Of a stretch of DNA of 64,000 nt, positions 7,448 to 45,227 are shown piece after piece. Positions within the stretch are counted from its first letter, which is position 1. Each line of letters begins with the position of its first letter. Made by a program: the position numbers and the translations under genes. The notes under the pieces were generated by a model. The model made no database searches. It was not told the origin of the DNA and was given only the letters and a program-made list of their open reading frames with translations. The stretch comes from Amphiscolops sp. MND2022 (Eukaryota), in contig OZ076409.1 of assembly GCA_964187785.1 (NCBI GenBank), forward strand, positions 6,574,001 to 6,638,000, read 5' to 3'.

Positions 7448-7680
7448 CCGTGTTCCAGTCCAGGCTAGTTCCAGACTCCTCTTTTGGCCCCCTCTTTTGA
7501 AAATGATGGGAATGTTGGGACTTATGTTGTGTGGTTTCATTATTGACATCCACTTGGCTTTGTGGAAAGAAAACAGGTTTTCCTTTTTTCCTTTTTAGGA
7601 CTTGTCATATCTAATAACAAAGAAGAGGATAAGAATAAAGATGAAAATATCTTTCTGTTGATAAACAGTGTATTTTGCAG

Positions 7681-10483: not shown

Positions 10484-10494
10484 AATGCCGACAG

Positions 10495-10811: not shown

Positions 10812-11280
10812 GCAGAGTTGTTACGATTAAACATGAGGGTAGAATTAAAGCCGGTGGAAAATGCCGGTCGTACTCATAGCTGAGGCTTCATTGAAAAAAC
10901 TTCTATATGCGCTTTCAATCGAGGTCTACTGTGTTACTAGAGTGAATCAGTAACTTAGCAAACAGTTGCTCAGTTATTGAAAAAAAGCTTTTTTGAATTT
11001 TACTGTTTTTGCAAGTCTTCACTTTTTGCAGTTACTTTTTTGCCCGGAGCTGGAAAAAAACTATATGCACACAAATAACAACTTACCTCAGTTCGTTCAA
11101 TGTATTTTCCATGAAAAGAAAAAAATCATTGTTTTCCTGTGTGCTTGTGTTTCGTAATTTTTATTGACTCATTATTTTTGTTTCAAATGCATGTTATTTA
11201 TTTACTCTCCTAGAGGATTGGTGGGTCTCTTCTGATCACATGTAAAAAAACTTCAGATTTGTTTAATAGAAGGAAACGTT

Positions 11281-11870
11281 TTTCATTATTTCTGCTTTAG
11301 CAGGAATATTATTGAATTGAAATCTCAAAATTTCTACTTTTGTCAGTACAATTCTCCGTATGATACTGAATAATTCAGATATTTTGTTCGGCAGTGACTA
11401 TAAGCGTAAGATTAAAGTTCTCAAGCTGCCGACGACAATTCAATTCTCGTGCGATGGAACGAGCGAGTTGTAATTATGCATTCGTAAGCTGACGTCATTG
11501 AGATGAAGCGAGCGAATGTTTGTTATTGTGCTTTCGTTGCGCCGAGTTATTGAGATGAAGCGAATGAGTGTTAGTTGTACTTTCGCGGAGAGCTTCGCCT
11601 GCATTCAAATATATATTTGCTTTACTCCGAGATTTACTACTATTACTACTGAAAGACTGGATTGATTCTAGTCAGAAATTGATTCTAGAAAGAAATACTT
11701 GATGATATTTACATGTACAGATTTTTTAAACAACAGAGTTAAAGGCGGTATAAACTGGTACAGTGATTAATTGTGCGCTAAATAATGATTAAACAGGAAT
11801 GTATTGGTATTCAAGATATGATTCTATTATTAATGAAAGATTAAAGCAGAAATAGTAATGGGCCTATTTT
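11281..11870. mobile_element. HINE-like family 3 copy (diverged)
   Basis: atttctgctttagcaggaat ... ttaaagcagaaatag..ggcctatttt. Confidence 0.65.
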
Positions 11871-12149
11871 TTTAAAAAAAAACTTTTTAAAAATTGGCAC
11901 AGAACGGAAAGAAGACTGTTTTTTCAACTTTTTTTGAAAACATGAAACAAAATGGAGTGCTACTAAAACAGCCGAGAGGAAAGGTTTCCAGCAGAGCATA
12001 AATCTTAGAACTGACTTTGTTTGCTCGGTTGGTGCTTCTGTCAAAAAACAGGATTGTGGAAATGATTTTTTTGAAAATTTGACAATGTGGATAAGTTTTT
12101 TGAATATGGTTTTCATTTTGACAGAAAACGAGTACAATGATAAACTACT

Positions 12150-15100
12150 CACTGATAGCAATCTCCGTTCCCAGGGTGAACAGAGTTGTTTCTATTCAGC
12201 AATTCGTTGAGTACAATATTAGGATCTCTGTGTTGTTTTTTCCAGCACGTGTCACATTTTTTTTGTCATCGTAACCGAAATATTCTATTTCACTTTTTGA
12301 CACTCGCAGCCCCGCATTTGGGCCATATCTTGCAACAACTCATGGAACGTTCGCAGCTTGGTTCTATGAATAAAGTTAAAACTATGAGTGCATAAGTCAA
12401 AGCTGTTTTGTTTAACTTTGTTGGTGGCATAGTGTGTTGTATCTTTGCTATAATTTCAATGAACAGGAGAGAAAGTGGTCACTGTTTGTTGATTGTGTAA
12501 ACAACGTATATCGAAAGTTTGTAATCTCTGCCCCACTCAGGCATGTTTACCAAGGCTGAAGTTCATATGCCGTTTAAGGAGGTGAATCAACCATAACAAA
12601 AATCATTTTGCCGTTTTACAACCAGAACAATCAGTCCAAGGTGATTAAAAATGAAAGCTTCAAGCTACTTGACATTATTTTTTTGCTGGAATTGATCGAT
12701 GATCAAAACAAAGGATACGAGGGAAACACCACTCTACTTTCCAGAAACCAAAATCATTGTTTGAAGGTAATGAGTGCCAAGTTAACATTGCATAGCTAAC
12801 CTCATCAACTCTCTGGCACATTGGGCATTTGATTTCACCATGTATTTTTTCCCTTTCTTTTCAGCTAGAGGAGACAATTTTCATCAGATTTGGGTCCACA
12901 TAAACAATGTCCACAAGAGAGAATTCTTGAACTAATTCCAAAAGTTTTACTTTCATCAGTTTATACTCACTGATTGCTTTCTCCTTTTTTCTTCTGTGAT
13001 ATTTTTTCCAACAAATGTCACAGGACTCTTGGTTGTAATCATTGCAGAAATATTTTAATTCTTTATTGTTCGGCCATTTCTTCCAACAACTCATGGAACT
13101 TTCGCAGCTTGGTTCTACAAATAAAGTTAAAACTATGAGTGCATAAGTCAAAGCTGTTTTGTTTAACTTTGTTGGTGGCATAGTGTGTTGTATCTTTGCT
13201 ATAATTTCAATGAACAGGAGAGAAAGTGGTCACTGTTTGTTGATTGTGTAAACAACGTATATCGAAAGTTTGTAATCTCTGCCCCACTCAGGCATGTTTA
13301 CCAAGGCTGAAGTTCATATGCCGTTTAAGGAGGTGAATCAACCATAACAAAAATCATTTTGCCGTTTGACAACCAGAACAATCAGTCCAAGGTGATTAAA
13401 AATGAAAGCTTCAAGCTACTTGACATTATTTTTTTGCTGGAATTGATCGATGATCAAAACAAAGGATACGAGGGAAACACCACTCTACTTTCCAGAAACC
13501 AAAATCATTGTTTGAAGGTAATGAGTGCCAAGTTAACATTGCATAGCTAACCTCATCAACTCTCTGGCACATTGGGCATTTGATTTCACCATGTATTTTT
13601 TCCCTTTCTTTTCAGCTAGAGGAGACAATTTTCATCAGATTTGGGTCCACATAAACAATGTCCACAAGAGAGAATTCTTGAACTAGTTCCAAAAGTTTTA
13701 CTTTCATCAGTTTATACTCACTGATTGCTTTCTCCTTTTTTCTTCTGTGATATTTTTTCCAACAAATGTCACAGGACTCTTGGTTGTGATCATTGCAGAA
13801 ATATTTTAATTCTTTATTGTTCGGCCATTTCTTCCAACAACTCATGGAACTTTCGCAGCTTGGTTCTACAAATAAAGTTAAAACTATGAGTGCATAAGTC
13901 AAAGCTGTTTTGTTTAACTTTGTTGGTGGCATAGTGTGTTGTATCTTTGCTATAATTTCAATGAACAGGAGAGAAAGTGGTCACTGTTTGTTGATTGTGT
14001 AAACAACGTATATCGAAAGTTTGTAATCTCTGCCCCACTCAGGCATGTTTACCAAGGCTGAAGTTCATATGCCGTTTAAGGAGGTGAATCAACCATAACA
14101 AAAATCATTTTGCCGTTTTACAACCAGAACAATCAGTCCAAGGTGATTAAAAATGAAAGCTTCAAGCTACTTGACATTATTTTTTTGCTGGAATTGATCG
14201 ATGATCAAAACAAAGGATACGAGGGAAACACCACTCTACTTTCCAGAAACCAAAATCATTGTTTGAAGGTAATGAGTGCCAAGTTAACATTGCATAGCTA
14301 ACCTCATCAACTCTCTGGCACATTGGGCATTTGATTTCACCATGTATTTTTTCCCTTTCTTTTCAGCTAGAGGAGACAATTTTCATCAGATTTGGGTCCA
14401 CATAAACAATGTCCACAAGAGAGAATTCTTGAACTAGTTCCAAAAGTTTTACTTTCATCAGTTTATACTCACTGATTGCTTTCTCCTTTTTTCTTCTGTG
14501 ATATTTTTTCCAACAAATGTCACAGGACTCTTGGTTGTAATCATTGCAGAAATATTTTAATTCTTTATTGTTCGGCCATTTCTTCCAACAACTCATGGAA
14601 CTTTCGCAGCTTGGTTCTACAAATAAAGTTAAAACTATGAGTGCATAAGTCAAAGCTGTTTTGTTTAACTTTGTTGTTGGCATAGTGTGTTGTATCTTTG
14701 CTATAATTTCAATGAACAGGAGAGAAAGTGGTCACTGTTTGTTGATTGTGTAAACAACGTATATCGAAAGTTTGTAATCTCTGCCCCACTCAGGCATGTT
14801 AACCAAGGCTGAAGTTCATATACCGTTTAAGGAGGCGAATCAACCGTAACAACAATCATTTTGCCGTTTTACAACCAAAACAATCAGTCCAAGGTCATTA
14901 AAAATGAAAGCTTCAAGCTACTTGACATTATTTTCTTGCTGTAATTGATCGATGATCGAAACCAAAGGATACGAGGGAAACACCACTCTACTTTCGAGAA
15001 ACCAAAATCATTAATGTTTGAAGGTAATGAGTGCCAAGTTAACATTGCATAGCTAACCTCATCAACTCTCTGGCACATTGGGCATTTGATTTCACCATGT

Positions 15101-18100
15101 ATTTTTCCCTTTCTTTTCAGCTAGAGGAGACAATTTTCATCAGATTTGGGTCCACATAAACAATGTCCACAAGAGAGAATTCTTGAACTAATTCCAAAAG
15201 TTTTACTTTCATCAGTTTATACTCACTGATTGCTTTCTCCTTTTTTCTTCTGTGATATTTTTTCCAACAAATGTCACAGGACTCTTGGTTGTAATCATTG
15301 CAGAAATATTTTAATTCTTTATTGTTCGGCCATTTCTTCCAACAACTCATGGAACTTTCGCAGCTTGGTTCTACAAATAAAGTTAAAACTATGAGTGCAT
15401 AAGTCAAAGCTGTTTTGTTTAACTTTGTTGGTGGCATAGTGTGTTGTATCTTTGCTATAATTTCAATGAACAGGAGAGAAAGTGGTCACTGTTTGTTGAT
15501 TGTGTAAACAACGTATATCGAAAGTTTGTAATCTCTGCCCCACTCAGGCATGTTTACCAAGGCTGAAGTTCATATGCCGTTTAAGGAGGTGAATCAACCA
15601 TAACAAAAATCATTTTGCCGTTTTACAACCAGAACAATCAGTCCAAGGTGATTAAAAATGAAAGCTTCAAGCTACTTGACATTATTTTTTTGCTGGAATT
15701 GATCGATGATCAAAACAAAGGATACGAGGGAAACACCACTCTACTTTCCAGAAACCAAAATCATTGTTTGAAGGTAATGAGTGCCAAGTTAACATTGCAT
15801 AGCTAACCTCATCAACTCTCTGGCACATTGGGCATTTGATTTCACCATGTATTTTTTCCCTTTCTTTTCAGCTAGAGGAGACAATTTTCATCAGATTTGG
15901 GTCCACATAAACAATGTCCACAAGAGAGAATTCTTGAACTAATTCCAAAAGTTTTACTTTCATCAGTTTATACTCACTGATTGCTTTCTCCTTTTTTTCT
16001 TCTGTGATATTTTTTCCAACAAATGTCACAGGACTCTTGGTTGTAATCATTGCAGAAATATTTTAATTCTTTATTGTTCGGCCATTTCTTCCAACAACTC
16101 ATGGAACTTTCGCAGCTTGGTTCTACAAATAAAGTTAAAACTATGAGTGCATAAGTCAAAGCTGTTTTGTTTAACTTTGTTGGTGGCATAGTGTGTTGTA
16201 TCTTTGCTATAATTTCAATGAACAGGAGAGAAAGTGGTCACTGTTTGTTGATTGTGTAAACAACGTATATCGAAAGTTTGTAATCTCTGCCCCACTCAGG
16301 CATGTTTACCAAGGCTGAAGTTCATATGCCGTTTAAGGAGGCGAATCAACCATAACAAAAATCATTTTGCCGTTTTACAACCAGAACAATCAGTCCAAGG
16401 TGATTAAAAATGAAAGCTTCAAGCTACTTGACATTATTTTTTTGCTGGAATTGATCGATGATCAAAACAAAGGATACGAGGGAAACACCACTCTACTTTC
16501 CAGAAACCAAAATCATTGTTTGAAGGTAATGAGTGCCAAGTTAACATTGCATAGCTAACCTCATCAACTCTCTGGCACATTGGGCATTTGATTTCACCAT
16601 GTATTTTTTCCCTTTCTTTTCAGCTAGAGGAGACAATTTTCATCAGATTTGGGTCCACATAAACAATGTCCACAAGAGAGAATTCTTGAACTAATTCCAA
16701 AAGTTTTACTTTCATCAGTTTATACTCACTGATTGCTTTCTCCTTTTTTTCTTCTGTGATATTTTTTCCAACAAATGTCACAGGACTCTTGGTTGTAATC
16801 ATTGCAGAAATATTTTAATTCTTTATTGTTCGGCCATTTCTTCCAACAACTCATGGAACTTTCGCAGCTTGGTTCTACAAATAAAGTTAAAACTATGAGT
16901 GTATAAGTCAAAGCTGTTTTGTTCAACTTTGTTGGTGGCATAGTGTGTTGTATCTTTGCTATAATTTCAATGAACAGGAGAGAAAGTGGTCACTGTTTGT
17001 TGATTGTGTAAACAACGTATATCGAAAGTTTGTAATCTCTGCCCCACTCAGGCATGTTAACCAAGGCTGAAGTTCATATACCGTTTAAGGAGGCGAATCA
17101 ACCATAACAAAAATCATTTTGCCGTTTTACAACCAAAACAATCAGTCCAAGGTGATTAAAAATGAAAGCTTCAAGCTACTTGACATTATTTTCTTGCTGT
17201 AATTGATCGATGATCGAAACCAAAGGATACGAGGGAAACACCACTCTACTTTCGAGAAACCAAAATCATTAATGTTTGAAGGTAATGAGTGCCAAGTTAA
17301 CATTGCATAGCTAACCTCATCAACTCTCTGGCACATTGGGCATTTGATTTCACCAATTTTTGATTTCACCAAGGTATTTTTCCCTTTCTTTTCAGCTAGA
17401 GGAGACAATTTTCATCAGATTTGGGTCCACACAAACAATATCCACGAGAGAATTCTTGAACAAATTCAAAAAGTTTTACTTTCATCAGTTTATACTCACT
17501 GATAGTTTTCTCCGTTCCCAGGGTGAACAAAGTTGTTCCCACTTGGCAATTTCGATGAGTTCGATTTCATGATCTCTATGCTGATTTTTTTTCCAACACA
17601 TGTCACAGAACTCTTGATTGTCATCACACCAGAAGTATTTCAGCTCAATATTGTTTGGCCTAATCTTCCATACAACTCATGGAACTTTCGCCGCTTGGAT
17701 ACACTCAGCAACTTCGATTCGTTCGATTTTATGATCTCTGTGATGATTTTTCCAACAAATTTCACAGAACTCTTGGTTGTAATCATTGCAGAAATATTTT
17801 AGTTCACTATTGTTCGGCCATTTCTTCCAACAACTCATGGAACTTCGCAGCTTGGTTCTACAATTAAAGTTGAATGCATAAGTCAAAGCTGTTTTGTTTA
17901 ACTTTGTTGGTGGCTTTGTGTTTTGTATTTTTGCTATACTTTCAATGAACAGGAGAGAAAGTGGTCACTGTTTGTTGATTGTGTAAACAACGTATATCGA
18001 AAGTTTATGTAATCTCTGCCCCACTCAGGCATGTTAACCAAGGCTGAAGTTCATGTACCGTTTAAGGGGGCGAATCAACCATAACAAAAATCATTTTGCC

Positions 18101-21100
18101 GTTTTACAACCAAAACAATCAGTCCAAGGTGATTAAAAATGAAAGCTTCAAGCTACTTGGCTTTTTTCTTGCTGGAATTGATCGATGATCTAAACAAAGG
18201 ATACGAGGGAAACACCACTCTACTTTCCAGAAACCAAAATCATCAATGTTTGAAGGTAATGAGTGCTAAGTTATTATTGCATAGCTAACCTCATCAAGTC
18301 TCTGGCACATTGGGCATTTGATTTCACCAGGTATTTTTCCCTTTCTTTTCAGCTAGAGAACACAACTTTCATCAGATTTGGGTCCACATAAACAATGTCC
18401 ACAAGAGAGAATTTTCGAACAAATTCAAAAAGTTTTACTTTCATCAGTTTATACTCACTGATAGCTTTCTCCGTTCCCAGGGTGAACAAAGTTGTTCCCA
18501 CTTAGCAATTTCGATGAGTTCGATTTCATGATCTCTATGCTGATTTTTCCAACACGTGTCACAGAACTCTTGATTGTCATCACAGCAGAAGTATTTCAGC
18601 TCAATATTGTTTGGCCTAATCTTCCATACAACTCATGGAACTTTCGCCGCTTGGATACACTCAGCAACTTTGATTCGTTCGATTTTTTGATCCGTGATGA
18701 TTTTTCCAACAAATTTCACAGAACTCTTGGTTGTAATCATTGCAGAAATATTTTAGTTCACTATTGTTCGGCCATTTCTTCCAACAACTCATGGAACTTT
18801 CGCAGCTTGGTTCTACAAATAAAGTTAAAATTATGAGTGCATAAGTCAAAGCTGTTTTGCTTAACTTTGTTGGTGGCATAGTGTTTCGTATCTTTGCTAT
18901 ACTTTCAATGAACAGGAGAGAGTGGTCACCGTTCGTGGATTGTTTAAGCAACGTATATCGAAAGTTTATGTAATCTCTGCCCCACTCAGGCATGTTTACC
19001 CAGGCTGAAGTTCATATGCCGTTTAAGGAGGCGAATCAACCATAACAAAAATCATTTTGCCGTTTTACAACCAAAACAATCAGTCCAGGGTGATTAAAAA
19101 TGAATTCAAGCTACTTGGCATTATTTTCTTGCTGGAATTGATCGATGATCGAAACAAAGGATACGAGGGAAACACCACTCTACTTTCCAGAAAGCAAAAT
19201 CATCAATGTTTGAAGGTAATGAGTGCCAAGTTAACATTGCATAGCTAACCTCATCAAGTCTCTGGCACATTGGGCATTTGATTTCCCCAGGTATTTTTTC
19301 CCTTTCTTTTCAGCTGGAGGAGACAATTTTCATCAGATTTGGGTCCACATAAACAATTTCCACAAGAGAGAATTTTCGAACAAATTCAAAAAGTTTTACT
19401 TTCATCAGTTTATACTCACTGATATTTTTCTCCGTTCCCAAGATGAACAAAGTTGTTCCCACTTAGCAATTTCGATGAGTTCGCTTTCATGATCTCTATG
19501 CTGATTTTTCCAACACATGGCACAGAACTCTTGATTGTCATCACAGCAGAAGTATTTTAGCTCAATTTCGTTTGGCCATATCTTCCATACAACTCATGGA
19601 ACTTTCGCAGCTTGGATACACTCAGCAACTTCGATTCGTTCGATTTTATGATCTATCTCTGTGATAATTTTTCCAACAAATGTCACAGAACTTTTGGTTG
19701 TAATCATTGCAGAAATTTTTTAGTTCACTATTGTTCGGCCATTTCTTCCATACAACTCATGGAACTTTCGCAGCTTGGTTCTACAAATATAGTTAAAATT
19801 ATGAGTGCATAAGTCAAAGCTGCTTTGCTTAACTTTGTTGGTGGCATAGTGTTTCGTATCTTTGCTATACTTTCAATGAACGGGAGAGAGTGGTCACCGT
19901 TTGTTGATTGTTTAAACAACGTATATCGAAAGTTTATGTAATCTCTGCCCCACTCAGGCATGTTTACCAAGGCTGAAGTTCATATGCCGTTTGAGGCGAA
20001 TCAACTATAACAAAAATCATTTTGCTGTTTTACAACCAAAACAATCAGTCCAGGGTGATTAAAAATGAAAGCTTCAAGCTACTTGGCATTATTTTCTTGC
20101 TGGAATTGATCGATGATCGAAACAAAGGATACGAGGGAAACACCACTCTATTTTCCAGAAAGCAAAATCATCAATGTTTGAAGGTAATGAGTGCCAAGTT
20201 AACATTGCATAGCTAACCTCATCAAGTCTCTGGCACATTAGGCATTTGATTTCACCAGGTATTTTCTCCCTTTCTTTTCAGCTGGAGGAGACAATTTCCA
20301 TCAGATTTGGGTCCACATAAACAATTTCCACAAGAGAGAATTTTCGAACAAATTCAAAAAGTTTTACTTTCATCAGTTTATACTCACTGATATTTTTCTC
20401 CGTTCCCAGGGTGAACAAAGTAGTTCCCACTTAGCAATTTCGATGAGTTCGATTTCATGATCTCTATGCTGATTTTTCCAACACATGTCACAGAACTCTT
20501 GATTGCCATCACAGCAGAAGTATTTTAGCTCAATTTCGTTTGGCCATATCTTCCATACAACTCATGGAACTTTCGCAGCATGGATACACTCAGCAACTTC
20601 GATTCGTTCGATTTTATGATCTCTGTGATGATTTTTCCAACACATGTCACAGAACTCTTGATTGTCATCAAAACAGAAGTATTTCAGCTCAATATTGTTT
20701 TGCCTAATCTTCCATACAACTCATGGAACTTTCACAGCTTGGATACACTCAGCAACTTCGATTCGTTCGATTTTATGATCTATCTCTGTGATGATTTTTC
20801 CAACAAATGTCACAGAACTCTTGGTTGTAATCATTGCAGAAATATTTTAGTTCACTATTCTTCGGCCATTTCTTCCAACAACTCATGGAACTTTCGCAGC
20901 TTGGTTCTACAAATAAAGTTAAAATGTGAGTGCATAAGTCAAAGCTGTTTTGCTTAACTTTGTTGGTGGCATAGTGTTTTGTATCTTGGCTATACTTTCA
21001 ATGAACAGGAGAGAGTGGTCACTGTTTGTTGATTGTGTAAATAACGTATATCGAAAGTTTATGTAATCTCTGCCCCACTCAGGCATGTTTACCAAGGCTG

Positions 21101-21800
21101 AAGTTCATATGCCGTTTAAGGAGGTGAATCAACCATAACAAAAATCATTTTGCCGTTTTACAACCAAAACAATCAGTCCAATGTGATTGAAAATGAAAGC
21201 TTCAAGAAACTTGACATTATTTTCTTGCTGGCATTGATCGATGATCAAAACAAAGGATACGAGGGAAACACCACTCTACTTTCCAGAAACCAAAATCATC
21301 AATGTTTGAAGGTAATGACTGCCAAGTTAACATTGCATAGCTAACCTCATGAACTCTCTGGCACATTGGGCATTTGATTTCACCAGGTGTTTTTTCCCTT
21401 TCTTTTCAGCTGGAGGAGACAACTTTCATCAGATTTAGGTCCACACAAACAATGTCCACAAGGGAGAATTCTTGAACAAATTTAAAAAGTTTCACTTTCG
21501 TCAGTTTATAATCACTGATAGCATTCTCAGTTCCCAGGGTGAACACATTTGCTTCCACTTAGCAATTTCGAAGAATTTGATTCTATGATCTCTGTGCTGG
21601 TTTTTCCAACGAATGTCACAGAACTCTTGATTGTCATCATAGCAGAAGTATTTTAGCTCACTATTGAGACGCCTGCAGAGACGCGTTTTGGCCATTTCTT
21701 CCAGCATCTACTCATATCCTTAAGATGTAACTTGCCCAGCTTGGATCTACGAATAAAACTAAAACTATGAATGCATAAATCAAAGTTGTTTAATTTGTAG
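12150..21800 (-). repeat. Tandem array of about 11-12 units (about 751-754 bp proximally, about 960-1130 bp distally) derived from a decayed coding region
   Basis: Near-identical ORFs recur at 12608, 13359, 14110, 15615, 16367, 19057, 20022 and 21150; one further copy at ~23460-24200. Confidence 0.95.
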
Positions 21801-22649
21801 GTGGTACACTTTATTCACTTTTTGTTCCTATGTTTTCATTAGAGAATAGGGAAAATGGAGACTATTTGGCAATTGTGTAAAAATCGTAAATTGAAAATTC
21901 GTGTCTGCTCTACTCCACACTGGCAAGTCATGTTTGATTGCCGGTGAAGAGGTGGCCTAACAATAAAAAAATCGTTTTCTACACAGTTGAAAATTCGTGT
22001 ATCCTCTACCCCACACAGGCAAGTTATGTTTGATTGCCGTTGAAGAGGTGGCATAACGATAACAAAAAATCGTTTTCTACACTCAGTTGAATAGCTATGA
22101 CAAAAAAATGTTGCACGTAAATTACTGTACGAAAAGACGTCAAAGTAAATACTGATCGAAACGTTTCTGATCGCTGCATTGACGTGACCTCAAGAGAAAA
22201 GACAAGATAGACTGATAAGTGTTCAATTTCAGTTTTAAGCGTGCTGAAGGAGCAAGTGAGATTAGTAAACACATTTCAGCAATATAAACTGCAGTGGTAG
22301 ACGTTAAGATTGAGAACTAGGAAAAGAAACAGTGACACATCAATAACTTCTTTCAGAGGCACATTATTTTACTGATATTTTGTTGAACAGTTTGTGAACC
22401 ACTGCAGACTGTAGGTAACAATAAATTACATTTTGATGTGTTTTTGGTACCTTCTTCGTATTGTTATTTGTAAGTAACAATGAGTGAAACTAACCAGTTG
22501 AAAGAACGGAAAACGCTTAGATCATGAGAAGCACCAGGAGAGCAATTGAAATCAAAAAATGATGAAAACAGCAGTAAAAATGGCAACTTGGCGGTTGGGT
22601 GATCCGATTAACATTGGCCGTTTCAAGTGATTTTGACCTTAACAGTTAC

Positions 22650-24752
22650 CCTTAACTAGTAGACTGATGAAACAGCCTTTTGCATTGGGAATAGGGATGT
22701 GGACTATGCGCGGGTTGTTCAATTGGCACAGCCTTGGGGAATCTCAGTGCCACTACAGCGTTTGGCAGAGGTTGGATAATTGATTCTGTAGAAATGACAT
22801 GATATTCGTGCACTTCGACGAAACTTTCGTTCTCCAATTTTGACGGCTTGAACCATCCGATTACTCGAAATCCTTTACGGCAGTTTGACGTACTTGACAC
22901 AGAAGGGTTCTGAATCCCATCCACAAATGCTCCATCAGTTCTAAACTCAACCAAATTGAACGCTGCTTCGTTTTGTGGCCTCACACTCACAATAATGTTG
23001 TGGTTCACAGAGAGTGTTGTGGTTCACAGTAATATTTTTGGCGAACTTCACTGAAACGAAAGACTTCTGGTGAGAAGTTCTTAAGAAAGTTGAGGACACT
23101 GAACCAAAGCTCGCAGATCCCTTTCCTTCAATCCACTCTTCAACAAACACACAACGTTTCTTTAACTGTTTGTCCATCACAGAAATTTCCGCTGCACAAG
23201 TAAACAGTAGAAATGATGTTTTTTAAAGTAGATATGATGTATTTTAATTGCCGTTCATCAGTAACAAAGTGGAAACTTTTATTATCGGTTTCGTTTTCGA
23301 TGCCGAACGCTTGCATTTCGTTGAACGATAAATTCATTTGAGAATTCGGTACTGGGATAAGTGGTTCAGTAGTAGATATCAAAAGGTTTTGGGAGTCAAT
23401 CATGGTCTCTTTAATTCGGAGTTCAATTAGTTCCACTATTTTTCCCGGATAAGTTTCGGGGTGATATCTTCATATGCCGTTTAAGGAGGCGAATCAACCA
23501 TAACAAAAAATCATTTTGCCGTGTTACAACCAAAACAATCAGTCCAAGGTGATTAAAAATGAAAGCTTCAAGAAACCTGACATTATCTTGCTGGAATTGA
23601 TCGATGATCAAAACAAAGGATACGAGGGAAACACCATTCTACTTTCCAGAAACCAAAATCGTCAATGTTTGAAGGTAATGAGCGCCAGGTTAACATTGCA
23701 TAGCTAACCTCATGAACTCTCGGGCACATTGGGCATTTGATTTCACCAGGTATTTTTCCTTCTTTTCAGCTAGAGAATAAAATTTCTTAGTTTTAGGGTC
23801 CACACAAACAATGTCCACAAGGGAGAATTCTTGAGAACAAAATTTTAAAAGTTTCACTTTCATCAGTTTTTACTCACTGATAGCATTCTCAGTTCCCAAG
23901 GTTAACACAGTTGCTCCCACTTAGCAATTTCGAAGTTCGAATTTATCATCTCTGTGCTGGTTTTTCCAACAATTGTCACAGAATTCTTGATTGTCATCAT
24001 AGCAGAAGTATTTTAGCTCACTATTGAGACGCCTGCAGAGACGCATTTCGGCCGTATCTTCCAACATCTACTCGTATCCTTAAGATGTAACTTGCCCAGC
24101 TTGGATCTACGAAAAAACTAAAAATTTGAATGCCTAAATCAAAGCTGTTTAATTTGTAGGTGGTACATATTACTCGCTTTTTGTTCCTATATTTTCATTA
24201 GTGAGTAGGGAAAATGGAGACTATTTGGCAATTGTGTAAAAATCGTAAATTGAAACTTCGTGTATCCTCTACCCCACACAGGCAAGTTATGTTTGATTGC
24301 CGTTGAAGAGGTGGCATAACGATAACAAAAAATCGTTTTCTACACACAGTTGAAAATTCGTGTATCCTCTACCCCACACAGGCAAGTTATGTTACTACGG
24401 TTCAGTAGTAGATATCAGGTTTTGGGAGTCAATCATGGTCTCTTTAATTCGGGGTTCCATTAGTTCCACTATTTTTCCCGGATAAGTTTCGGGGTGATAT
24501 CTTGTTACGATCCTACTCTTTCTCGCTAGAGGTAATGAGCGCCACTACCTTGTTGCTTCTTGGGTCTCCAAAAAGAAAGAACCGGTCGTCGTTTATTTGG
24601 TGGAGCTTGTTTTTAGACAGCATACTCTGACGACCGGACGTTGCTTGTTTGAACTTCAGTGGCTCAACTGCGTGTTTCCCATGTGAATTTACTAAAAACA
24701 ACCTTTTATCTTCGCAGTCGGATGCAAAATCGGAGTTTATTTTTAAATTCAT
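22650..24752 (-). pseudogene. Decayed Cys-rich ORF of a mobile element; likely source of the tandem array
   Basis: Chain of frameshifted minus-strand ORF fragments (24752, 23611, 23436, 23180, 23008) that includes one array unit. Confidence 0.4.
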
Positions 24753-25208
24753 CTGCCAAGGTCTCTAGCAGAAACAGGATTGAGGGAGCTTGCGAATGCG
24801 GTGTTCTTTTTAGGTGAGAATCTATTTTTGTTCGGGTTAGTTCCTAAACACAGAAATGTTGGAAAAAGTAATAACAGAAAAGAAAAATATTTTCTTGTAA
24901 AATAATAATTTGACACCTCTAGAAGAATACAAAAGTGTGGCGTTGTAACAAAAAGAGGAGAGATTTGATATTGTCAAAGAAGGGAGTGAGGTTTGAGGTG
25001 ACATGGAGATACGAAAAACGAATCACAGATAAAAAAAGTCGCAATCTTTGTTGAAGGGAATATCGAAAAATTACTGTAATCTCCGCTGATGTTGGAACTA
25101 AATAACTTTTGAAGTAGAGTTCGTTTCGTTAATTTCCGGCGACAATTATAGTTAATATTTAGGGGGAAATGGAGAGGTATGTGTTGTGGAAATGATGGAT
25201 GATTATCT

Positions 25209-25595
25209 AACAAGACGCCCGCTAAGCACCGGGATATTTTCCTCCCTTTTCGCCTTCATCACTTGAGCCATAGCTATTTTGGGAGAAGAATAGGATCTAA
25301 ATGATAAGATCTAAAATTTATTGATTTTAGATCTTATTCCCTTTAGATCTTAATCCCATTTTTACTTTAGATCTTTTTCCATCAGATTTTATACTCGTCC
25401 TGAAATTTTAGATGTTGTTCGCTTTGGATCTTATTTCCTTTTTTGACTTTAGTTCTTATTCCTCCCTCCTACTAAAATAGTCCCTCCTACGGTGGTGAGT
25501 CAAGTGATGGAGCGTGGAGATTTGGCAGAATTTGGAAAAAAACGCAACACAGATGATGAGTTTCCTCCCCAATGAAAATGTGGGTCGGAAAATAA
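25209..25595. mobile_element. HINE-like family 2 copy
   Basis: aacaagacgcccgctaagcaccggg ... gggtcggaaaataa, with internal agatct microrepeats. Confidence 0.6.
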
Positions 25596-25999
25596 TAAAA
25601 CAAGTTAGATTATTAGCCAATCTGCAAAATGCATCAGTAAATGATGCAGCAAACCTTCCGCAGGTTTATTAGCCCGCACTGTGTCCAAAAAGGCAAGTGT
25701 AAACAAGTACAGCAAAAAACATGGAAGCCAGGAATTTTGTTTAATTCGTAAATTCAATGTGTAGGGATCACAACATATATTTATTTTGATATTTTCAATT
25801 ATTTGTTTCAAGTTTTTGCAAAACTTTTCCTGCCCACTTTTAATAGTAGAGCTAGGGTTCACATCTGACATTGTATCGGAATGGATGCAGACCACTTTTT
25901 TAGTAGAGCCATAAACATATGAGGTACAGTCCACTTTCATAGAGCCAGAAACATGTAACTTTGGTTTTTGAACGCAATGGACGAACAGATCAAGTACTT

Positions 26000-28336
26000 G
26001 CTGCGGGTTTGCCTGCCATTTTTGAACATTGAAGTTTCTAAACAGCTCATAGTGAATAAAATGTTCCGCTCTTTCACGTTTATTGACTTCGGATATGTCA
26101 CTGAAATCGGTTACGAAGCAAAGGAGGCCCCATGGTCTTATGAGGTTGATTGGGTAAACAGGAACTGTTTACAGGGTTGAGCTCGCAAAGACGTCGACGT
26201 AAGTCAGATGTTTGACCGACGTAAATTGACAATGCATCTTTGGTACCAACCAAAAAGTAGGCAAAACCAGCTTCTGATGTAATTCTATTTTCCGAGGTCG
26301 AAAAGGAGAAACTTTGGCTAAGTCTGAAAGTCAGCTTGATTAGCAGATGTTCGCGCTGGCCTTCCCATGAATTCATCTCACTGTTTGAGCAAGTAATTTT
26401 TCAATTGGAGCTAACGTTGCTGTTTCCTCGCCGGAAAAAAGTTATATTACCTGAATTCTGAACTCGACTTACTAATAAAGTTGTTCCCTTTCCCGGGGAC
26501 AATATTCTGTCCGAAAAAAAATCAATTTTGTGGCGATTTTCCCAATAGTTTCCCCAGTAGCTTTGCGTATGGTCATTTCCATAAAATTTTTCGGCGGGAA
26601 TTAGGTCCGTCTGAGTAAAGAGCCTGTATAATTATGAACGAAACCTGTTTGCTGGTGCAAAATCACGCTAAACCACCCATTTTCAACCAACATGTTGAAC
26701 TTCATTAGTTTTTTTTCGTTGACAGACTGTTTGAAAACACATATTTGACCCTGTGATACCTTCAAAGGTCGAACGTTCATGGTTATCCTCAGCAGTGCAT
26801 TTTCATTGCAGTAGAGAAGTTCAGGTTCAAAACATTGATGGTTGAGTGCTCTCTTTATTGCTAGAGGGGCAGTGTTCCAGTTACTCGGGCAGTTCATTTT
26901 CACCTCATCGATGCTCTTTAGCTCCCTAACGACCTGACCCGATGAAACCCCACGGATTTGAGCATGTATGGCTTTCAACTCAGCAGGTTAGTTGTCCGAG
27001 TCTCAAAATTTACATTTTTCCGCAAACCTTTCCAAAATTTCTTCGTTCGTTTGCCGATTTACCAGGAACGGATAACATCTTGAGAAACTGCCTACCTATA
27101 AAGTCTGCCATTCTAACCCATTTCCTTCTAACGAAAAGATCTCTACACTTGTAATTATGATTGGAGATGTCCATAATAAACGACCTTGCGGTGGTAATTG
27201 TTTCTGATCTCCGGTGCCAAATATCAGAACGCCTTCGAAAGGCACATAAGTGTCTCGTTTTTTTGAGGATGTGGTCTTTTGTAGCAAACTCTTCCGCAGA
27301 TACCATACCAATCTCTTCAAAATACAAAATCGATCATTTTCATTATTACTCGTTTCAGAAGGTCGTTTTTCAATTTCTGTGACCCTTGCTGCACAATGCA
27401 GTCCACGTTCAGTGTTTTTGAAACTGGTGAGCAAAAATTGTCATGAACATGCATTCCGGAAAACTGCACACCTCTTTCACTGCTCAAAGAAATAAATATC
27501 ACATTTAACCTCTGACACAAAGCGTACAAAGGAGTATTTTTGATCAAAAACGTTTTTCAGAACCGGGCATCCCTACTACTACTAAATGATGTTTGAAAAA
27601 AAAGCGGAACTTTTGTACTCGTCAATTGTTTTCATAAGCCTCTTAACCGTAGATTGCTGGTCGTTGAAAACAACGTTTTGCGATTTAAGACGATTGTATT
27701 GCAAAGGGCAATACAAGTTGCAATCAATGATGAACTGGATGTCAGGCTTACCTGTATCCTGAACTAAGTCATGAATTTGCGAAGCAACTGCGAAGAGTTT
27801 TTCCATAACAGGTCTCAAAAGTTCACCTGTGTATTCTTCCTGCAAAGCATTATAAACGATAGTTGGCGTTTCGTTATTTGTGTTTTCATCGAGTGATGTC
27901 CGGAACGCCACATTTGCACCAATCTGACGGTCTTGAGAAAAATGCGATCCGGGACATATATGACTCCTTTAAGGATAAACGTTTTCAGAAACCGACTATC
28001 TCACGTTCTATGATCGTCTCAGCGTCGTAACAAGACCAGCTGTTTGAAATGCTTTTATAATTGTACCCCGTCTTCATATAAATCGAATTCTGTTTCGTAT
28101 TTACCAAATTGAAGTAAAAACTTGTTAGGAAATAGGGCCATGTCGGGGAATTACATTTGGAAACACAACGACCACAGGTTTCGATTGATCTTCACGACTA
28201 TCGACAAGCCTGCTGATGTCGTGATTGTTAAGTATGTCTAAATAATTGGACGCGAAAAATCTATACTGCTGGCTTTGATTCGAACCACCCAGAAATAAAA
28301 TTTTGAAATGATACCACAAGGGCTTGTTTTTTTGCA
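26000..28336 (-). pseudogene. Frameshifted PIF1-family helicase with C-terminal GIY-YIG nuclease (Helitron/Helentron-like remnant)
   Basis: PIF1-like motifs EEIGMVS, PFEGVLIFGTGDQKQLPP, ITMNV..SQGQ and MTIRKATGET, followed by FAYFL...IYVGQTSDLRRRL (GIY-YIG); many frameshifts. Confidence 0.75.
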
Positions 28337-28367
28337 AATCGTAACAACTCTGAACCTAATCGTCAAG

Positions 28368-28615
28368 GTCTGAAACTGAACCCCCCATCGATCACGGTGG
28401 GCTATGTGTACGCGTACCGGGTGCCGGACTCGGGAGACAGCTTCGAGTTCATCCACAGGACTGAGATGGAGGATGTGGCTCTGGCGGTGTGCGAGTTCAA
28501 GGGGAGGGTGTTGATCGGGGTGGGCAAGTGGCTGCGACTGTACGACATGGGACGGAAGAAGTTGCTGAAGAAGTGCGAGAACAAACATCTCACTAACAAG
28601 ATCATCACCATCAAG
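28368..28615 (+). CDS. SF3B3: SF3B3 exon F
   Basis: GLKLNPPSITVGYVYAY...GRVLIGVGKWLRLYDMGRKKLLKKCENKHLTNKIITIK; tcaag acceptor, gttgtt donor. Confidence 0.92.
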
Positions 28616-29558
28616 GTTGTTGAATGAATAGAACAAAAAAGAAAGAATAAAACAAGAAAGAACATGAATGAAACAAGGAAAACAAGCCGGGAACGGCCAA
28701 AGTTGGCGCTATATCGAAGGCTCAAAATTGTAAAAGGGGGACCATTTGGGCTTTGTGAAACTCCAGTTAGTTGCAAAAGATGAAAAAAATTAAAGGGGGA
28801 CCCTTGGGAGATTTTTAAAAATTTCCGAAAAAAATTTAAAATGAGATTTTTGAAGTGTCACAGTGCCGAAAAATGTAAAAGGGGGCCTTTGGGATTTTTC
28901 AACATCCATTCTCGGGCAAAATTGAAGGTGGGACCCTTTGGTGCAGTCCAAAAATTTTCGAAAAAAGTCTCATAGTGCCGAAAAAAAATCCAAGTTAAAA
29001 ACACCAAGATAATAAAAGTTGGATCCTGAGTATGTTTTCGAGGTTTTGGACGTTGGTTTTGTTTTGGACGAGGTTCTGACGTTTCCAGTATGTTTTGGAC
29101 ATCCGTAGTTCAAGTTGAACAAATGAACGAAAAGTGGACTTTACGCGTATAAAAAAACTACCCGCTGTAAGAGTCGGGCACTTTTCTTCAAAAGCGCCGA
29201 CTAAAAAACACTGTTTGTTCAGACACTTCTTTCCAGTTGTTTATGGTCTAGTTTCTGACTGTTCAATTTGTTTGGTACTTTTTGTTTACAAACCAGAACG
29301 CCTCGTGTGAAAGATGATATCTGGAAAATTTCAATGAAGTGAATGAATTCCATGCTTTTTATTCCTTTGTCAAATTTTTGTACAATAAAATATTTGGCAA
29401 CAAACGAAAACCGTTGTGCATAACACATTGTTTTCCACGGTAGTTTTCCCAAGAGGAAAAAAGCATTAAAATAATTTTAAAAAAAACAGTATATTCCGTT
29501 CAAAAACCTTTTAAAAGCATTTTTCGTGAAACAACAAACTGTCTAATTAACAACCTTG
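28612..29558. mobile_element. hAT-like Introner forming SF3B3 intron F-G
   Basis: TIR caaggttgtt/aacaaccttg; perfect 8-bp TSD atcaccat at 28604-28611 and 29559-29566. Confidence 0.85.
28681..29208. mobile_element. HINE family 1 copy (nested)
   Basis: aacaagccgggaacggcc hairpin ... gcgccgactaaaaaa. Confidence 0.7.
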
Positions 29559-29570
29559 ATCACCATGCAG

Positions 29571-29758: not shown

Positions 29759-31132
29759 GTAATATTATTTCACTAAAGCACTGTTGTGAGTACTAATTAT
29801 TGCTGAACTGTTCATCTCACAATAGCTGATACAGTTGAATCCACCTAAATCGTATCACCAAGGACCGAAAAAAATAGTACGAAGAAGGAGAGATACGAAT
29901 TAACGACGGATGATATTACTAAGGTTGTCGCGAAAAGGCGTGTCTCGGATACCGACGAATTGAACGAAGATCCGAACTATCAGGATACGAATTAACCGGA
30001 ATTGACTCCATGTTGCACGTTTTTTCTCCAGCTATCACTTTTATAACTTTTTCTAAACTTCAAGGAAATGCCTGAGTCGTAGAGCTCCATGGCCTTGTGT
30101 TTAATGATGATAAATTTATTTATCCTGATTTCAATACCTAAACATTCTTCAAGTTAAATACATTTAAACAATATTTTGACTATAAAATAAGGAAAAGACT
30201 TCCAAAGGGCTTGTTTTCGCTCAGTGGGAAGCATCGTGGCATCAAATTTTTTTTTAAATTAAGTTTCAGTAACTTAGTTGGTGGAAAGTCATGAGTAATA
30301 ATTGAACCGCACTTCCACTCAAAAGATAAAAAAATACTTTCATAATATGATACTTTCATGATATGAACAATATCATACCGCTTCTGCTGTTGTACAAGAG
30401 TTCAAACGTGACACTTAATTTATACATTGCTGCAAACTTCGAAATAGTAACTATATTTTTAGAAGTTAAGAAGGCGTTAAGATGGAGTTCTGAAGTTACT
30501 TTTCAGCCTTCAAATTAGACGTTTAACTCTGAAATAGTTCACAAGGAGGCTCTGTTTAACAAATTGAATTCGTTGAGAAGTCGGCCTAAACTGGCATAAA
30601 AAACGCAAAAAATCTGAAGTTTTTGTCGTTCACCGAATGTTTTGCCTTTGCCTTCAAATAATTCCCTTGCTGGTACGTTTTACTCTCAATATAATGCGTT
30701 GGCCCGGTAAGCAGACGACGTGGATTTCAATCCTGCTCATTGCCACATATGATATATGCATTTTGAACTATAGAAATAGTGAGTTTGAATGAAACTTGTA
30801 TAATAAGTGATATAATTTAGGTATAACATTGGGAATTTGAATATAGCGCTTGTTTTCTGCGTGTTACAATGCTAAAGGTGGGTGTTTGAATCTACTCAAC
30901 GTCGGAGTTTTTGTCCAAATTGAGTGATACTAATAGCAGTTTCTGACAGCGTATATAACCAAACTATATTTCGGATGCAGCGCATGGAATGCGGATATAA
31001 CATATACGGTTGTTTTAGTATTATACTGACTTCGGTTCATTTTCTCGAAGGCCATTTTTAGTCAACGCGTTAAAAACTGGAATTTGCCCAACTTATAACA
31101 GTCATCTTTTTTAAATCTCAGTGGTCGATTAA

Positions 31133-31672
31133 AACAAGCCGGGACCGGCTCAAGTCGGCGCCATATCTAAGGCTCAAAAATAGCAAAAGGACTTCAAAGT
31201 GTCAAGTATTCTCTTCTACAGTACCCGCTTGAGGAAAAATTGGAAAAAAAAATCCGAACTTTTTAAATTTTTTTCCGATTTTTTTTGGTTTCCGGTAAGT
31301 CGCATAGTGCCGAAACATGTAAAAGGGGGCACTCTGGGAGTCTTTGAACATCCATTTTTTGCAAAATAGACAAAAAAATGACGGGTGGGCCCTTTGAGAT
31401 ATTTGCGAAAAAAAAGTCTCACAAAGCCGAAAAAAAAATTGCACAAAAAAATTTTGGTCAAGGGCGAGACTCGAACCCATTTCCTTCTGCTTGGCAGACC
31501 TCAAAAAAGCCGTAACCTCTATGCCAAGTGGCAGTGAAGTAGTGTGGCAGTAGTGGCAGTTTAGTGTTAGTCGGTCAACTTATAAAATTTATAAAATCTG
31601 TCAGTTCGTTGGTCTTAAAAAAAAGTCACTACTATAGTCTGCGTTTTTCTTCGAAAAGCGCCGACTAAAAAA
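31133..31672. mobile_element. HINE family 1 copy with tRNA-like segment
   Basis: Family termini; minus-strand B box gggttcgagtct at ~31467-31478. Confidence 0.7.
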
Positions 31673-31888
31673 CGGTTTTCGAGCCCAAAATGTCCCCATT
31701 TGCGTTTTTCGGTAGTATGCGAGTTTTCAATTTTATTTTTATTCATTTTGGGTTTTTTGATTTGCCAGAATTTAACAGCCACCCTTGAACATGTTTAAAA
31801 GAGTTGGCGCTTTTCGATCTTGAAGTGGCCCTGTGTTTTTATCTAGTCCACCAGCTGAACTTTTGACCTCTTTTTTTTTTCTTGCCAG

Positions 31889-32013: not shown

Positions 32014-32237
32014 GTTAGATTTGTGATGTGTGCACCGCATTTCTTCAAATAGAAGTCGCATTGAGCCTGAAAATTTTTTCTGAGCCATAGCTTACCATAC
32101 TTCTGCGAATAAAAGCAGTGAAATCACTACCAAAAAACTTACAAGCCGCGGCCTGCATTTGAAGAAATACGGTATATCGATTATGAACTAGTAAATTCCC
32201 ACATGTCGTCCAAATAAAGTGGGAAGAAAAACTTTTG

Positions 32238-32762
32238 TTTTTAGTCGGCACTTTTTTTATCAGTGTTTTTAAGACCACCTGAAGTGACCAAAATAGTTCT
32301 ACCAAAAGTTCTACAAAAATTTGAGAAGACGCCAAATTGTACCTGTTGGCCCAAGGAACTGAACCAAAAAGGTTTACCGCGTAACATGCAATACCGGACG
32401 AGACCAAAGGGTCCCCCTTTTCAGTTTTTCCGGCATTGCGAGACTTTTTTTCGGAAAAATTGTGTTCCCCAAAGGGTCCCCCATTCAATTTTTTGGAGTT
32501 TTGTTTTTTTCGGCACTGTGCGACTTTTTTTCAATTTTTTTCCACCAAAGGGTCCCCCCTTCATTTTTTTTGGAGTTTTGCAACAGAATGGATGTTGAAA
32601 AATCCCAACGGGTCCTCCCTTTCAGTTTTTTTCTGCATTGAGACTTTTTTCAAAAATTTTTCATAAAAGGTTCCAAATTCACCAATACTTTGACATTCTG
32701 AAGTCCTTTTGCTATTTTTGAGCCTTATATATGGCGCCGACTTGGGCCGTTCCCGCCTTGTT
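32238..32762. mobile_element. HINE family 1 copy (opposite orientation)
   Basis: ttttagtcggc ... gcgccgacttgggccgttcccgccttgtt; partial paralog at 33502-33910. Confidence 0.7.
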
Positions 32763-32815
32763 TTTCTTCGCCGTGTTGTAAGAAAACCACCGCGTTTTTA
32801 ATTGCCTTCCAGGAG

Positions 32816-43750: not shown

Positions 43751-44447
43751 ACACTTGCGATAAGCAAGTGTTATGGGAAAGTGCGGGTGCTTTTTTTTCC
43801 GCGCGACAACTCTCTGATTTCACGCAGCAACTCGCACATTTCACGCGTTCGTGGTCTAGTGGTAAGATGCTTGCTTTTCAACCCAGAGGTTTCGTGTTCG
43901 AACCCGTGGTTATGCGCTAATTTTTTTACAAGTATTCCGAAGCAGAAGGTTTGACATTTTTCGGCACTATGAGACTTTTCGGCTTTGTGAGACTTTTTTT
44001 TCGGCTTTGTGAGACTTTTTTTTCGAAATTTTTTAATGTCCCCAAAGCGTCCTCCTTTCAATTTTTTGATATCTTGCAACAGAACGAATGTTATAAAATC
44101 CTAAAGTGTCCCTTTATCACATTTTTCGGCACTATGCGACTTAGCGGAAACTTCAAAAAAATCGAAAAAATTCGGAAAATTTTTTCTCAATTTTTAGTTT
44201 TAAAAGACAAGAATGGGTTTTTTGCTGTTTTCAGTTGGGGAAGAATGGTTTTCGAGGCTTACGCGTATCCCTTCGGGTATTTTTTGGCGCTGTAAAATTG
44301 ATGAAATTTTAATCTCCTTTTACCCTTGGTTTTCCGTATGATATTGCTTATTTGGTTTTCTTCAAAAGTTCGCAAGTGTTTGCGAAGCACGGCTTCGCCT
44401 CTGTGTCTAAATTTGGCTGTATGAAAAGTCACCGTTTTTAATTGCAG

Positions 44448-44690
44448 CGCAACTTTGACGAGCTGGAACGAAACCGGGACAAAGTGATGCAATACAAACT
44501 GGAGAGAGCGGCGAAAGACGTCGAAACGAACAAACGGGAGTTCGAAACGTGCAATTCCAATTGTTCCAGGGACCTCAAGTTTCTGTACGACGTTCGCAGT
44601 GACTACATCGCCCCCTCGTTCGAGACCCTGGTACATTCCCAGAAAGCCGTGTTCGACTCCATGGAAGAGTGCTACTCTGAGATCTTGCAG
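44448..44690 (+). CDS. BIN3: BIN3-like exon 4
   Basis: KLERA..REFETCN...LYDVRSDYIAPSFETLVHSQ resembles BIN3 FYGSRLDYFQPSFESLIRAQ; GC donor. Confidence 0.82.
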
Positions 44691-45116
44691 GCTATTTTTT
44701 GTTTTTCCCCCCACCACCAAATTTTTTGGAAGTACGTTTCCTTAAATTTCAGACGAGCCTAATTGAAAGTAAAGTCTTCTTTCAATGAACAAGTGTCTTC
44801 TTTCACAGGAATTTAATGTCTATTGGAATAGTTTTTTGTTTGAACAAAACATTTTTCACGCATTTTAACTATAATTACGTTCTTATTCACTGATTTTTGC
44901 ACTCAAAACAGGAAGTTGTTGATTTCTTTTCCAAGAATGCGTGAATTCATTAGGAAAAATAATGTGAACAAAGTTTGTATCTCAATTCCAAACTGTCACA
45001 CTGTGGAAATGAATGAAAATTGAAGGTTTCTGTTTTGTATTCAAGTCTTTTTTAAATAAAAATTTTCACTAATTTTTCAATAAAAAAATGGTGGTGGGGG
45101 AAAACAGAAAAGAGCC
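44690..45116. mobile_element. MITE/Introner forming BIN3 intron 4
   Basis: Imperfect ~29-bp TIR starting ggct; perfect 8-bp TSD atcttgca at 44682-44689 and 45117-45124. Confidence 0.88.
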
Positions 45117-45125
45117 ATCTTGCAG

Positions 45126-45227
45126 AGTGTCGACCCACTTTCGACTGAGAGCAGCATCACGAACAGACTCGATTCAACTTTTAAAGACCTTACCTCTCTG
45201 TCCATAGTATCCGCTGAGAAGCCATAG
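45126..45227 (+). CDS. BIN3: BIN3-like last exon (not in ORF track)
   Basis: SVDPLSTESSITNRLDSTFKDLTSLSIVSAEKP*; LSIV matches the BIN3 C-terminal LRALSIV; in frame after the tgcag acceptor. Confidence 0.75.
   Translation, partial: SVDPLSTESSITNRLDSTFKDLTSLSIVSAEKP

Follow-up and report, generated by a model that had tools for sequence, protein, structure and literature searches.

In a BIN3-like gene of the window (the whole 64,000-nt stretch of DNA that was analysed), a single old MITE has been inserted into a coding exon and is probably removed from the pre-mRNA as an intron. Its exact excision through GC-AG sites, with one copy of the duplicated target, is a reading that we hold to be fairly probable. 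The BIN3 MITE would be a fresh example of a known route from mobile DNA to intron, introner-like and MITE-derived. The origin of new spliceosomal introns is a long-standing question, for which introns made by transposons are the best-supported route, seldom documented in animals. The BIN3 locus is a textbook-clean animal case, with an intact element, an intact coding target duplication, a relative's empty site, and a single-copy host gene. The insertion, the element family, the empty site, the single-copy gene, and the conserved tail of the reading frame are the parts of this account that rest on the sequence shown.

The order of parts over 44682-45125 is exon gag, ATCTTGCA (44682-44689), the element GGCTATTTTTTG...AAAAGAGCC (44690-45116), a second ATCTTGCA (45117-45124), a single host G, and exon AGTGTC. 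This is the layout that a preliminary description of this DNA had claimed, and it is borne out by the sequence and by repeat searches, which find the 9-base direct repeat ATCTTGCAG at 44682-44690 and 45117-45125 (spacing 435 bases) and inverted arms of 30 nt, 83% complementary, at 44697-44726 and 45082-45111. Both MITE termini start with GGCT, and in an end-to-end alignment their first 30 columns contain 26 matches, two mismatches, and one gap of 2 nt. The BIN3 MITE is full-length, 427 bp, with inverted ends of ~30 nt and a perfect 8-bp target duplication, ATCTTGCA. The frame from 45126 translates as SVDPLSTESSITNRLDSTFKDLTSLSIVSAEKP and ends at the stop at 45225-45227; excision of 44691-45125 (GC...AG) rejoins ...EILQ/SVDPL... 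exactly. The claim that excision would restore ATC TTG CAG AGT (ILQS) and the claimed stop at 44762 were confirmed in the same way, by the joining of the frames 44448-44690 and 45126-45224 and by the read-through stop at 44760-44762. The BIN3 protein can stay intact, on this reading of the frames, only if the MITE is removed as an intron. Because of the direct repeat, ten intron placements give an identical mRNA by our own enumeration from the sequence, and only 44691-45125 is GC-AG, the others being non-canonical (e.g., AG-GC). The features of the locus are as follows, P0002 being a relative's predicted protein that is described below.

44448-44690, + strand: penultimate coding exon of the BIN3-like (BAR-domain) gene, 81 codons, ending ...SEILQ, its last base (G 44690) being also the first base of the MITE; Pfam BAR E 8.6e-4, match to fish BIN3, 86% identity to P0002
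44682-44689, no strand: target-site duplication copy 1, ATCTTGCA, coding (I L Q), from the direct-repeat search, the 8-bp duplication being family-wide
44690-45116, + strand: MITE of 427 bp, GGCT...AGCC, an old copy of a Merlin-associated family, with 15.3% divergence from the young-subfamily majority and a terminal branch of 0.138
44690-44726, + strand: 5' terminal inverted repeat with the putative GC donor G/GCTATT and an A at element position 5 (intron +4)
44691-45125, + strand: predicted GC-AG intron of 435 nt, made of the MITE minus its first G, the second target copy, and the host G; removal restores ATC TTG CAG AGT, in continuity with P0002
44760-44762, + strand: stop codon met if the MITE stays in, after 23 foreign residues
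45082-45116, + strand: 3' terminal inverted repeat, purine-rich, with an alternative in-frame acceptor ACAG inside (45104-45107), the frame being open from 45084
45117-45124, no strand: target-site duplication copy 2, which with host G 45125 makes the putative CAG acceptor
45126-45227, + strand: last coding exon, 33 codons, SVDPL...LSIVSAEKP, stop TAG at 45225-45227

An antisense open frame of 160 aa at 44259-44741 was rejected as a gene; it mirrors the coding exon, and there is no evidence for a gene.

The host gene is recognised by several weak matches that run in the same order. Taken as a single exon, 44448-44690 scores 19.5 bits against Pfam BAR (E 8.6e-4), below the curated cut-off of 28.5, and it matches bridging integrator 3 of Channa argus (P0004) with an E of 7.7e-4 against 1.84 billion proteins; a tblastn search within the window gives an E of 6.4e-7. 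Weak colinear matches to fish BIN3 lie upstream at ~40.83-40.92 kb. Four colinear BIN3-like exons are seen in the window, and the predicted MITE intron is the last to interrupt the coding sequence, its number, 4 in the preliminary description, being tentative. When several sequences are aligned together, the 33 residues downstream of the MITE fall on the C-terminus of fish BIN3, with LSIV in both. The name BIN3 is supported by this common C-terminal LSIV together with the match to Channa argus BIN3, which is weak but colinear. The BIN3-like gene is single-copy, because the exon DNA and P0002 each match just this locus in the assembly that holds the window. A comparison of the 81-aa exon with longer proteins gave nothing at E <= 0.001 among 16 candidates.

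Does a related genome carry the same exon without the element? An exhaustive protein search returned P0002, a 109-aa open frame from a relative's 35,555-bp contig (ENA), which begins six residues into the exon and reads ...DEILQSVDPLCTEN... / ...GGCYDEILQSVDPLCTENSIANRLDATFRDITSLSIVSAEKS uninterrupted across the insertion point. It is 86% identical to the BIN3 exon upstream of the site over 76 residues, and over the 33-codon tail 26 of 32 positions are identical and 30 of 32 positive, with no indel and no stop; four of the six differences score positive. The contig of P0002 is probably syntenic with the window, because P0005 (420 aa), whose source contig is of the same size as that of P0002, is 99% identical to the last SF3B3 exon of the window. 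Another frame, P0006 (497 aa, from a further ENA contig), starts MFCAAC-RYHL, and its C6 aligns to the TGC at a window intron end (TGC AG/G TAT CAC); judged by this alignment, the start of P0006 is an intron 3' end read by an intron-naive ORF caller. Given the neighbour P0005, the intron-naive start of P0006, and the start of P0002 within the exon, P0002 would be an uninterrupted genomic frame and not a spliced model, and we infer from this predicted protein that the relative's exon is uninterrupted at the insertion site. A search for empty-site species had been proposed in the preliminary description, and it yielded an empty site in a relative: by its predicted protein, which is continuous across the insertion point, the intron is absent at the orthologous site, as for an introner. 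A near-length protein search with P0002 found P0002 itself alone, and a scan of JGI metagenome contigs with P0002 gave 522 pattern matches, of which none was confirmed. The possibility that P0002 is a retrocopy was rejected: a retrocopy would be expected to have exon-3 sequence in frame upstream and a longer protein, and P0002 probably lies on one contig with SF3B3.

The BIN3 MITE belongs to a large family. At least 4,513 first-look candidates were found in the 1.07-Gb assembly of the animal itself, of which 40 were scored, with non-self matches 77-84% identical. The family termini read GGCTCTTTTCTGTTTT...AAAACAGAAAAGAGCC; recognisable ends and many genome copies, as in the transposon of an introner, are both present. 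Among the fetched loci, the 8-bp duplication is exact in 17 of 25 full-length copies and has one mismatch in three more, which agrees with the earlier claim that the coding sequence of BIN3 holds an intact MITE with an 8-bp duplication. The family had also been said to be dispersed, with a truncated relative at 7063-7447. Both statements hold: the same termini recur among the 4,513 candidates, and the copy at 7063-7446, 72-75% identical to element positions 1-386, is without the 3' inverted repeat (the last ~40 bases). The majority of sampled copies form a young subfamily, ~2% from its own majority sequence. The BIN3 copy diverges from that majority sequence by 15.3% (K2P 0.172), and in a maximum-likelihood tree of 39 copies it has a terminal branch of 0.138 substitutions per site, an upper bound for change after insertion, versus 0-0.03 in young copies. 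By these distances, the BIN3 MITE copy is old. Its two target copies are identical at 8/8 positions; one to three mismatches separate those of four other old copies.

Merlin elements duplicate 8-9 bp of target, and hAT elements have the terminal motif YARNG and an 8-bp duplication. The MITE termini read GGCTC, without the YARNG of hAT, and the 8-bp duplication alone does not discriminate between the two. The genome contains 42 matches to PF12762, the Merlin/IS1595-type transposase domain. One locus (L037) has an intact 255-aa DDE_Tnp_IS1595 frame at 1183-1947 (PF12762 E 4.7e-21), and MITE terminal and subterminal sequence begins 43 bp past this frame and ends at 2011; a second such MITE end precedes the frame, in an unexpected orientation. 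At L044/L046, a transposase copy 80% identical to that of L037 has the same terminal repeat at its end. Among the transposase loci examined, none has both ends in the normal arrangement. The BIN3 MITE shows the duplication length of Merlin and has termini in common with an IS1595/Merlin-type DDE transposase element, and a hAT origin was rejected on the termini and the Merlin link. The earlier view that the element is Merlin-like rather than hAT gains support from the terminal repeat that the MITE has in common with two IS1595-type transposase elements. Some unusual arrangements of ends were seen on contig C4. At L037:1143-2011, the Merlin transposase frame sits between two 'right' ends, and at the same locus the sequences that follow two of the MITE ends are reverse complements of each other; at L021:1501-2595, two MITE copies have exchanged flanking 8-mers. 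The end arrangements at L037 and L021 suggest rearrangement between copies or aberrant transposition.

How could the BIN3-like gene survive an insertion into its coding sequence? In the mechanism that we propose, a non-autonomous Merlin-type MITE inserted long ago in the last coding exon of the sole BIN3-like gene, duplicating ATCTTGCA. The donor would be the GC at element positions 2-3 (CAG/GCTATT) and the acceptor the CAG formed by the second target copy and the next host G, and splicing would remove exactly the element plus 8 bases, restoring ...EILQ-SVDPL.... The proposed survival of the gene would follow because the pre-mRNA is spliced from the element's GC to the target-built CAG. The MITE itself brings no good splice signals; these would have come from the place of insertion, and the spliceosome of this genome would accept weak GC donors.

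Several properties of the predicted intron bear on this mechanism. Against it, the BIN3 donor agrees, by our own count, with the usual 5' consensus at only six of nine positions. In its favour, an A at intron +4 agrees with the usual donor consensus; among the 32 sampled termini it is found in the BIN3 copy alone, the other 31 having C. That the MITE is spliced out without a scar, as the preliminary description has it, that these exact sites are used, and that the change from C to A at intron +4 was selected are inferences. Also in favour of the mechanism, donor and acceptor are drawn close to each other by the long terminal stem into which the inverted ends fold, with an MFE of -112.7 kcal/mol (z -4.06, none of 100 shuffles as good). 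Of the U2-type features, the GC, the AG, and a CTAAT are present and the pyrimidine tract is absent, which counts against the mechanism: purines predominate in the final 40 nt up to the acceptor, and the likely branch site is the CTAAT at ~45071, about 50 nt upstream of the 3' end. A further point against it is that three AGs lie between this CTAAT and the proposed acceptor, of which the one at 45106-45107 is in frame. The tail downstream of the MITE has six differences to P0002 at 32 positions, where ~10 would be expected if the full 0.138, itself an upper bound, had accrued neutrally after insertion; by this rough estimate the tail is only weakly better conserved than under neutral decay, which also counts against the mechanism.

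The weakness of the signals leaves room for other outcomes. Removal of the MITE might be inexact, by way of an alternative acceptor or donor that gives in-frame products, which we consider rather unlikely. The GC donor could be joined to the ACAG in the 3' inverted repeat (45106-45107), with the addition of six residues, KRAILQ; the frame is open over 45084-45227, and this ACAG (45104-45107) is the first AG past the likely branch site, although it lies within the predicted terminal stem and is also without a pyrimidine tract. Alternatively, an upstream GT donor at 44628 (CTG/GTACAT) could be joined to 45125, with the loss of 20 residues of the last BAR helix, but this would take out sequence that is conserved with P0002 and with fish BIN3. 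The MITE intron of SF3B3 at 28626-29568, if spliced GT-AG, offers a parallel for inexact removal in exchanging 4 nt (MQ to IK), and introners are reported to add or delete codons in the accounts of PMC11282704 and PMC9860276.

If the MITE were not spliced at all, the gene would encode a truncated BIN3 with 23 transposon-encoded residues, and the downstream 33 codons would be an undecayed relic. Donor and acceptor signals are both weak, as this would have it, and a 33-codon open frame may persist by chance (~0.1 for AT-rich sequence by our own estimate). Against such a relic, the insertion is old and yet the tail is 26/32 identical to P0002, with four of six changes positive and no indel or stop; the tail has a motif in common with fish BIN3, no second copy of the gene was found, and neither copy of the target has decayed. 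We regard the absence of splicing as distinctly unlikely. A still older history, in which the intron is ancestral, was lost by the relatives, and was later hit by the MITE, would draw on the frequent loss of introns in fast-evolving animal lineages. It was rejected as very improbable: the intron contains nothing beyond a single element and a single target copy, the 8 bases that were duplicated belong to the coding sequence, and an old intron would leave further intronic sequence. Exact GC-AG removal of the inserted MITE is the most probable reading.

Is the MITE family, then, an introner family? Of 27 other sampled MITE copies, nine, with ten frames between them, are flanked on each side by at least 20 open codons and by at least 70 in all. 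This test of open frames across the junction, applied to 28 copies, is uninformative: for random junctions in the same loci, the best frame has a median length of 66 codons and reaches at least 100 in 24% of cases. Two independent insertion events among the 27 other copies lie in frames with sub-threshold Pfam matches. One is the pair L007:1501-1907 and L023:1500-1905, near-duplicate loci ~110 kb apart on contig C7, in which the MITE divides a long open frame into 127-148 and 32-35 codons, and a C2H2 finger (E 1e-4) follows just downstream of it; the target, CAGGTTCT, would supply GT and AG for a scarless intron. The other is L017:556-961 on contig C1, where a Sulfotransfer_2-like frame (E 4e-4) is broken by a MITE copy whose target duplication is AAAATTTG; this copy offers no near-canonical sites for scarless splicing, and the L017 host may be a dead paralogue or may use non-canonical splicing. 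The term introner, which the preliminary description had applied to the BIN3 intron, fits the mechanism, that is, a transposon in an exon with predicted sites from element and target duplication; in the strict sense, that of a family which makes many introns, it is at most tentative, with only two other weak-match events among 27 copies. The BIN3 copy is the only one tied to a predicted intron with comparative support. The picture that emerges would be that this is a generic MITE, which seldom lands in exons and is tolerated there when the sequence around the target by chance provides sites for splicing.

The best-known comparison is with the introners of Micromonas pusilla and Aureococcus anophagefferens, reportedly the subject of Huff et al. 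2016. In Micromonas and Aureococcus, introns made by transposons with target-derived splice sites are established, according to PMC11282704. Like those introners as described in PMC11282704 and PMC9860276, the BIN3 element is short, non-autonomous, and of the DNA-transposon type, has inverted ends, and duplicated its target when it landed in an exon; one splice site would come from the element and the other would be built with the duplicated target, leaving the mRNA length unchanged, as predicted here. Unlike the BIN3 family, a generic high-copy MITE with poor built-in signals, the Micromonas and Aureococcus families are described as specialised and as accounting for hundreds to thousands of introns. 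Florenciella-type introners take both splice sites from the insertion site (PMC9860276), and they resemble the BIN3 case in the predicted recruitment of splice sites from the target duplication and the neighbouring exon. A survey of 3,325 genomes reported introners in 175 of them, with just two animal groups (Gozashti 2022, PMC9860276), and a later one reported 201 species with introners, among them a tunicate, Styela clava, and a sea urchin, Strongylocentrotus purpuratus (Gozashti 2025, PMC12130899). The BIN3 intron would be a further instance of such rare animal cases; the Styela clava, S. purpuratus, and Florenciella cases are reported as validated by RNA-seq and family-wide counts, whereas the BIN3 case is a prediction from genome sequence.

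The neighbouring gene in the window, SF3B3, extends from before 295 to 33171 on the + strand, and the best named matches of its exon are to tunicates, at 70-73% identity, which may hint at a tunicate. Next to P0005 and P0006, the frames of which run on without a break, the SF3B3 of the window has five extra introns. The introns that bear on the BIN3 case, and the truncated MITE copy within one of them, are as follows.

7003-7677, + strand: SF3B3 intron, GC-AG, donor CAG/GCTATA; its removal gives ...SYVFQSR-YHLTPLSY, colinear and gap-free with Clavelina SF3B3
7063-7447, + strand: 3'-truncated copy of the family of the BIN3 MITE, within the GC-AG intron 7003-7677
7913-10489, + strand: extra intron, ends (C)AGGGATTATTAA / TTAATAATCCCC(G), with either GG-AG or AG-AC as splice sites
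10814-28342, + strand: extra intron of 17.5 kb, with a perfect 16-nt inverted repeat, CAGAGTTGTTACGATT, at both ends; the only near-canonical ends are GC-AG
28626-29568 (28612-29568 with flank), + strand: extra intron, a second MITE, with a perfect 8-bp duplication, ATCACCAT, ends CAAGGTTGTT...AACAACCTTG, and a GT donor, AAG/GTTGTT, in the terminal repeat
29760-31886, + strand: extra intron, plain GT-AG
32016-32811, + strand: extra intron, plain GT-AG

To be read as above, SF3B3 must use the donor CAG/GCTATA at 7003, nearly identical to the CAG/GCTATT predicted for BIN3. This intron appears to be common to the genome of P0006, whose frame starts in the intron 3' end. A direct duplication of ~75 bp (6985-7062 and 7448-7520) lies on both sides of the truncated MITE copy and includes the last 16 bases of the SF3B3 exon and the GC donor (TTCCAGTCCAG/GCTA); it looks like a repair-associated duplication at a transposon site. 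For the intron 7913-10489, only GG-AG or AG-AC yield the conserved ...ADHN-SFTTQ.... Its right flank, GAATGCCGACAG, resembles a decayed copy of the left exon end, GAAGCAGACCACAACAG, and these flanks suggest a long target duplication. No matching 8-bp duplication was seen at the ends of the 17.5-kb intron. In 28626-29568, the acceptor is a host GCAG past the second target copy, and the predicted GT-AG splicing swaps the 4 nt noted above, MQ becoming IK. The ends CAAGGTTGTT...AACAACCTTG are, we presume from their YARNG motif, hAT-like. The CAAGGTTGTT family, which is the outer element of this intron, has 326 genome candidates, and among 11 loci examined, both ends could be located in five copies, each of which has an 8-bp duplication with 0-2 mismatches.

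Six introns within 35 kb, five in SF3B3 and one in the BIN3-like gene, are absent from the relatives' frames, and four of the six, three of them in SF3B3, are bounded by inverted repeats. Among the ten mapped introns of the window, six are GT-AG, three GC-AG, and one GG-AG or AG-AC; three GC donors in ten is far above what is usual in animals. The larvacean tunicate Fritillaria borealis is reported to have mostly MITE-derived, non-canonical introns (Henriet et al. 2019 via PMC11282704; PMC13326754). As it is described there, F. borealis resembles the present case in having species-specific introns with inverted repeats and target duplications, in tolerating non-GT donors, and in a similar stem that pairs the intron ends. 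Unlike its introns, mainly with AG/AC and AG/AT ends, those of the window are mostly GT-AG or GC-AG in the proportions given above, closer to the GT/AG and GV/AG pattern reported for other tunicates. The neighbouring SF3B3 suggests that introns have arisen in this way at many places in the genome, and from more than one family of MITEs. It is possible, though we put it forward tentatively, that the lineage gained introns in a burst, from ordinary MITEs that belong to several superfamilies (Merlin-type, hAT-like), helped by a spliceosome that accepts weak GC and GG donors. If such a burst were true genome-wide, the lineage would be among the most active intron-gaining animals, and generic MITEs, not specialised introners, would be the raw material for introns. 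With RNA data and the genomes of relatives, the lineage could be used to find out, quantitatively, in what sequence contexts an exon tolerates the insertion of a transposon.

The interior of the extra SF3B3 introns is rich in other repeats. Element searches with the introns 7913-10489 and 10814-28342 returned 6,010 and 2,288 candidates, respectively, swamped by nested high-copy repeats from ~45 bp inside. A 530-bp high-copy repeat with 8,987 candidates is nested at 28681-29207 in the intron 28626-29568. Tandem-like units with AAAGGGTCCCCC...TTTTTCGGCA motifs, from this same repeat, are seen in SF3B3 introns at 32400-32700 and at 28700-28990.
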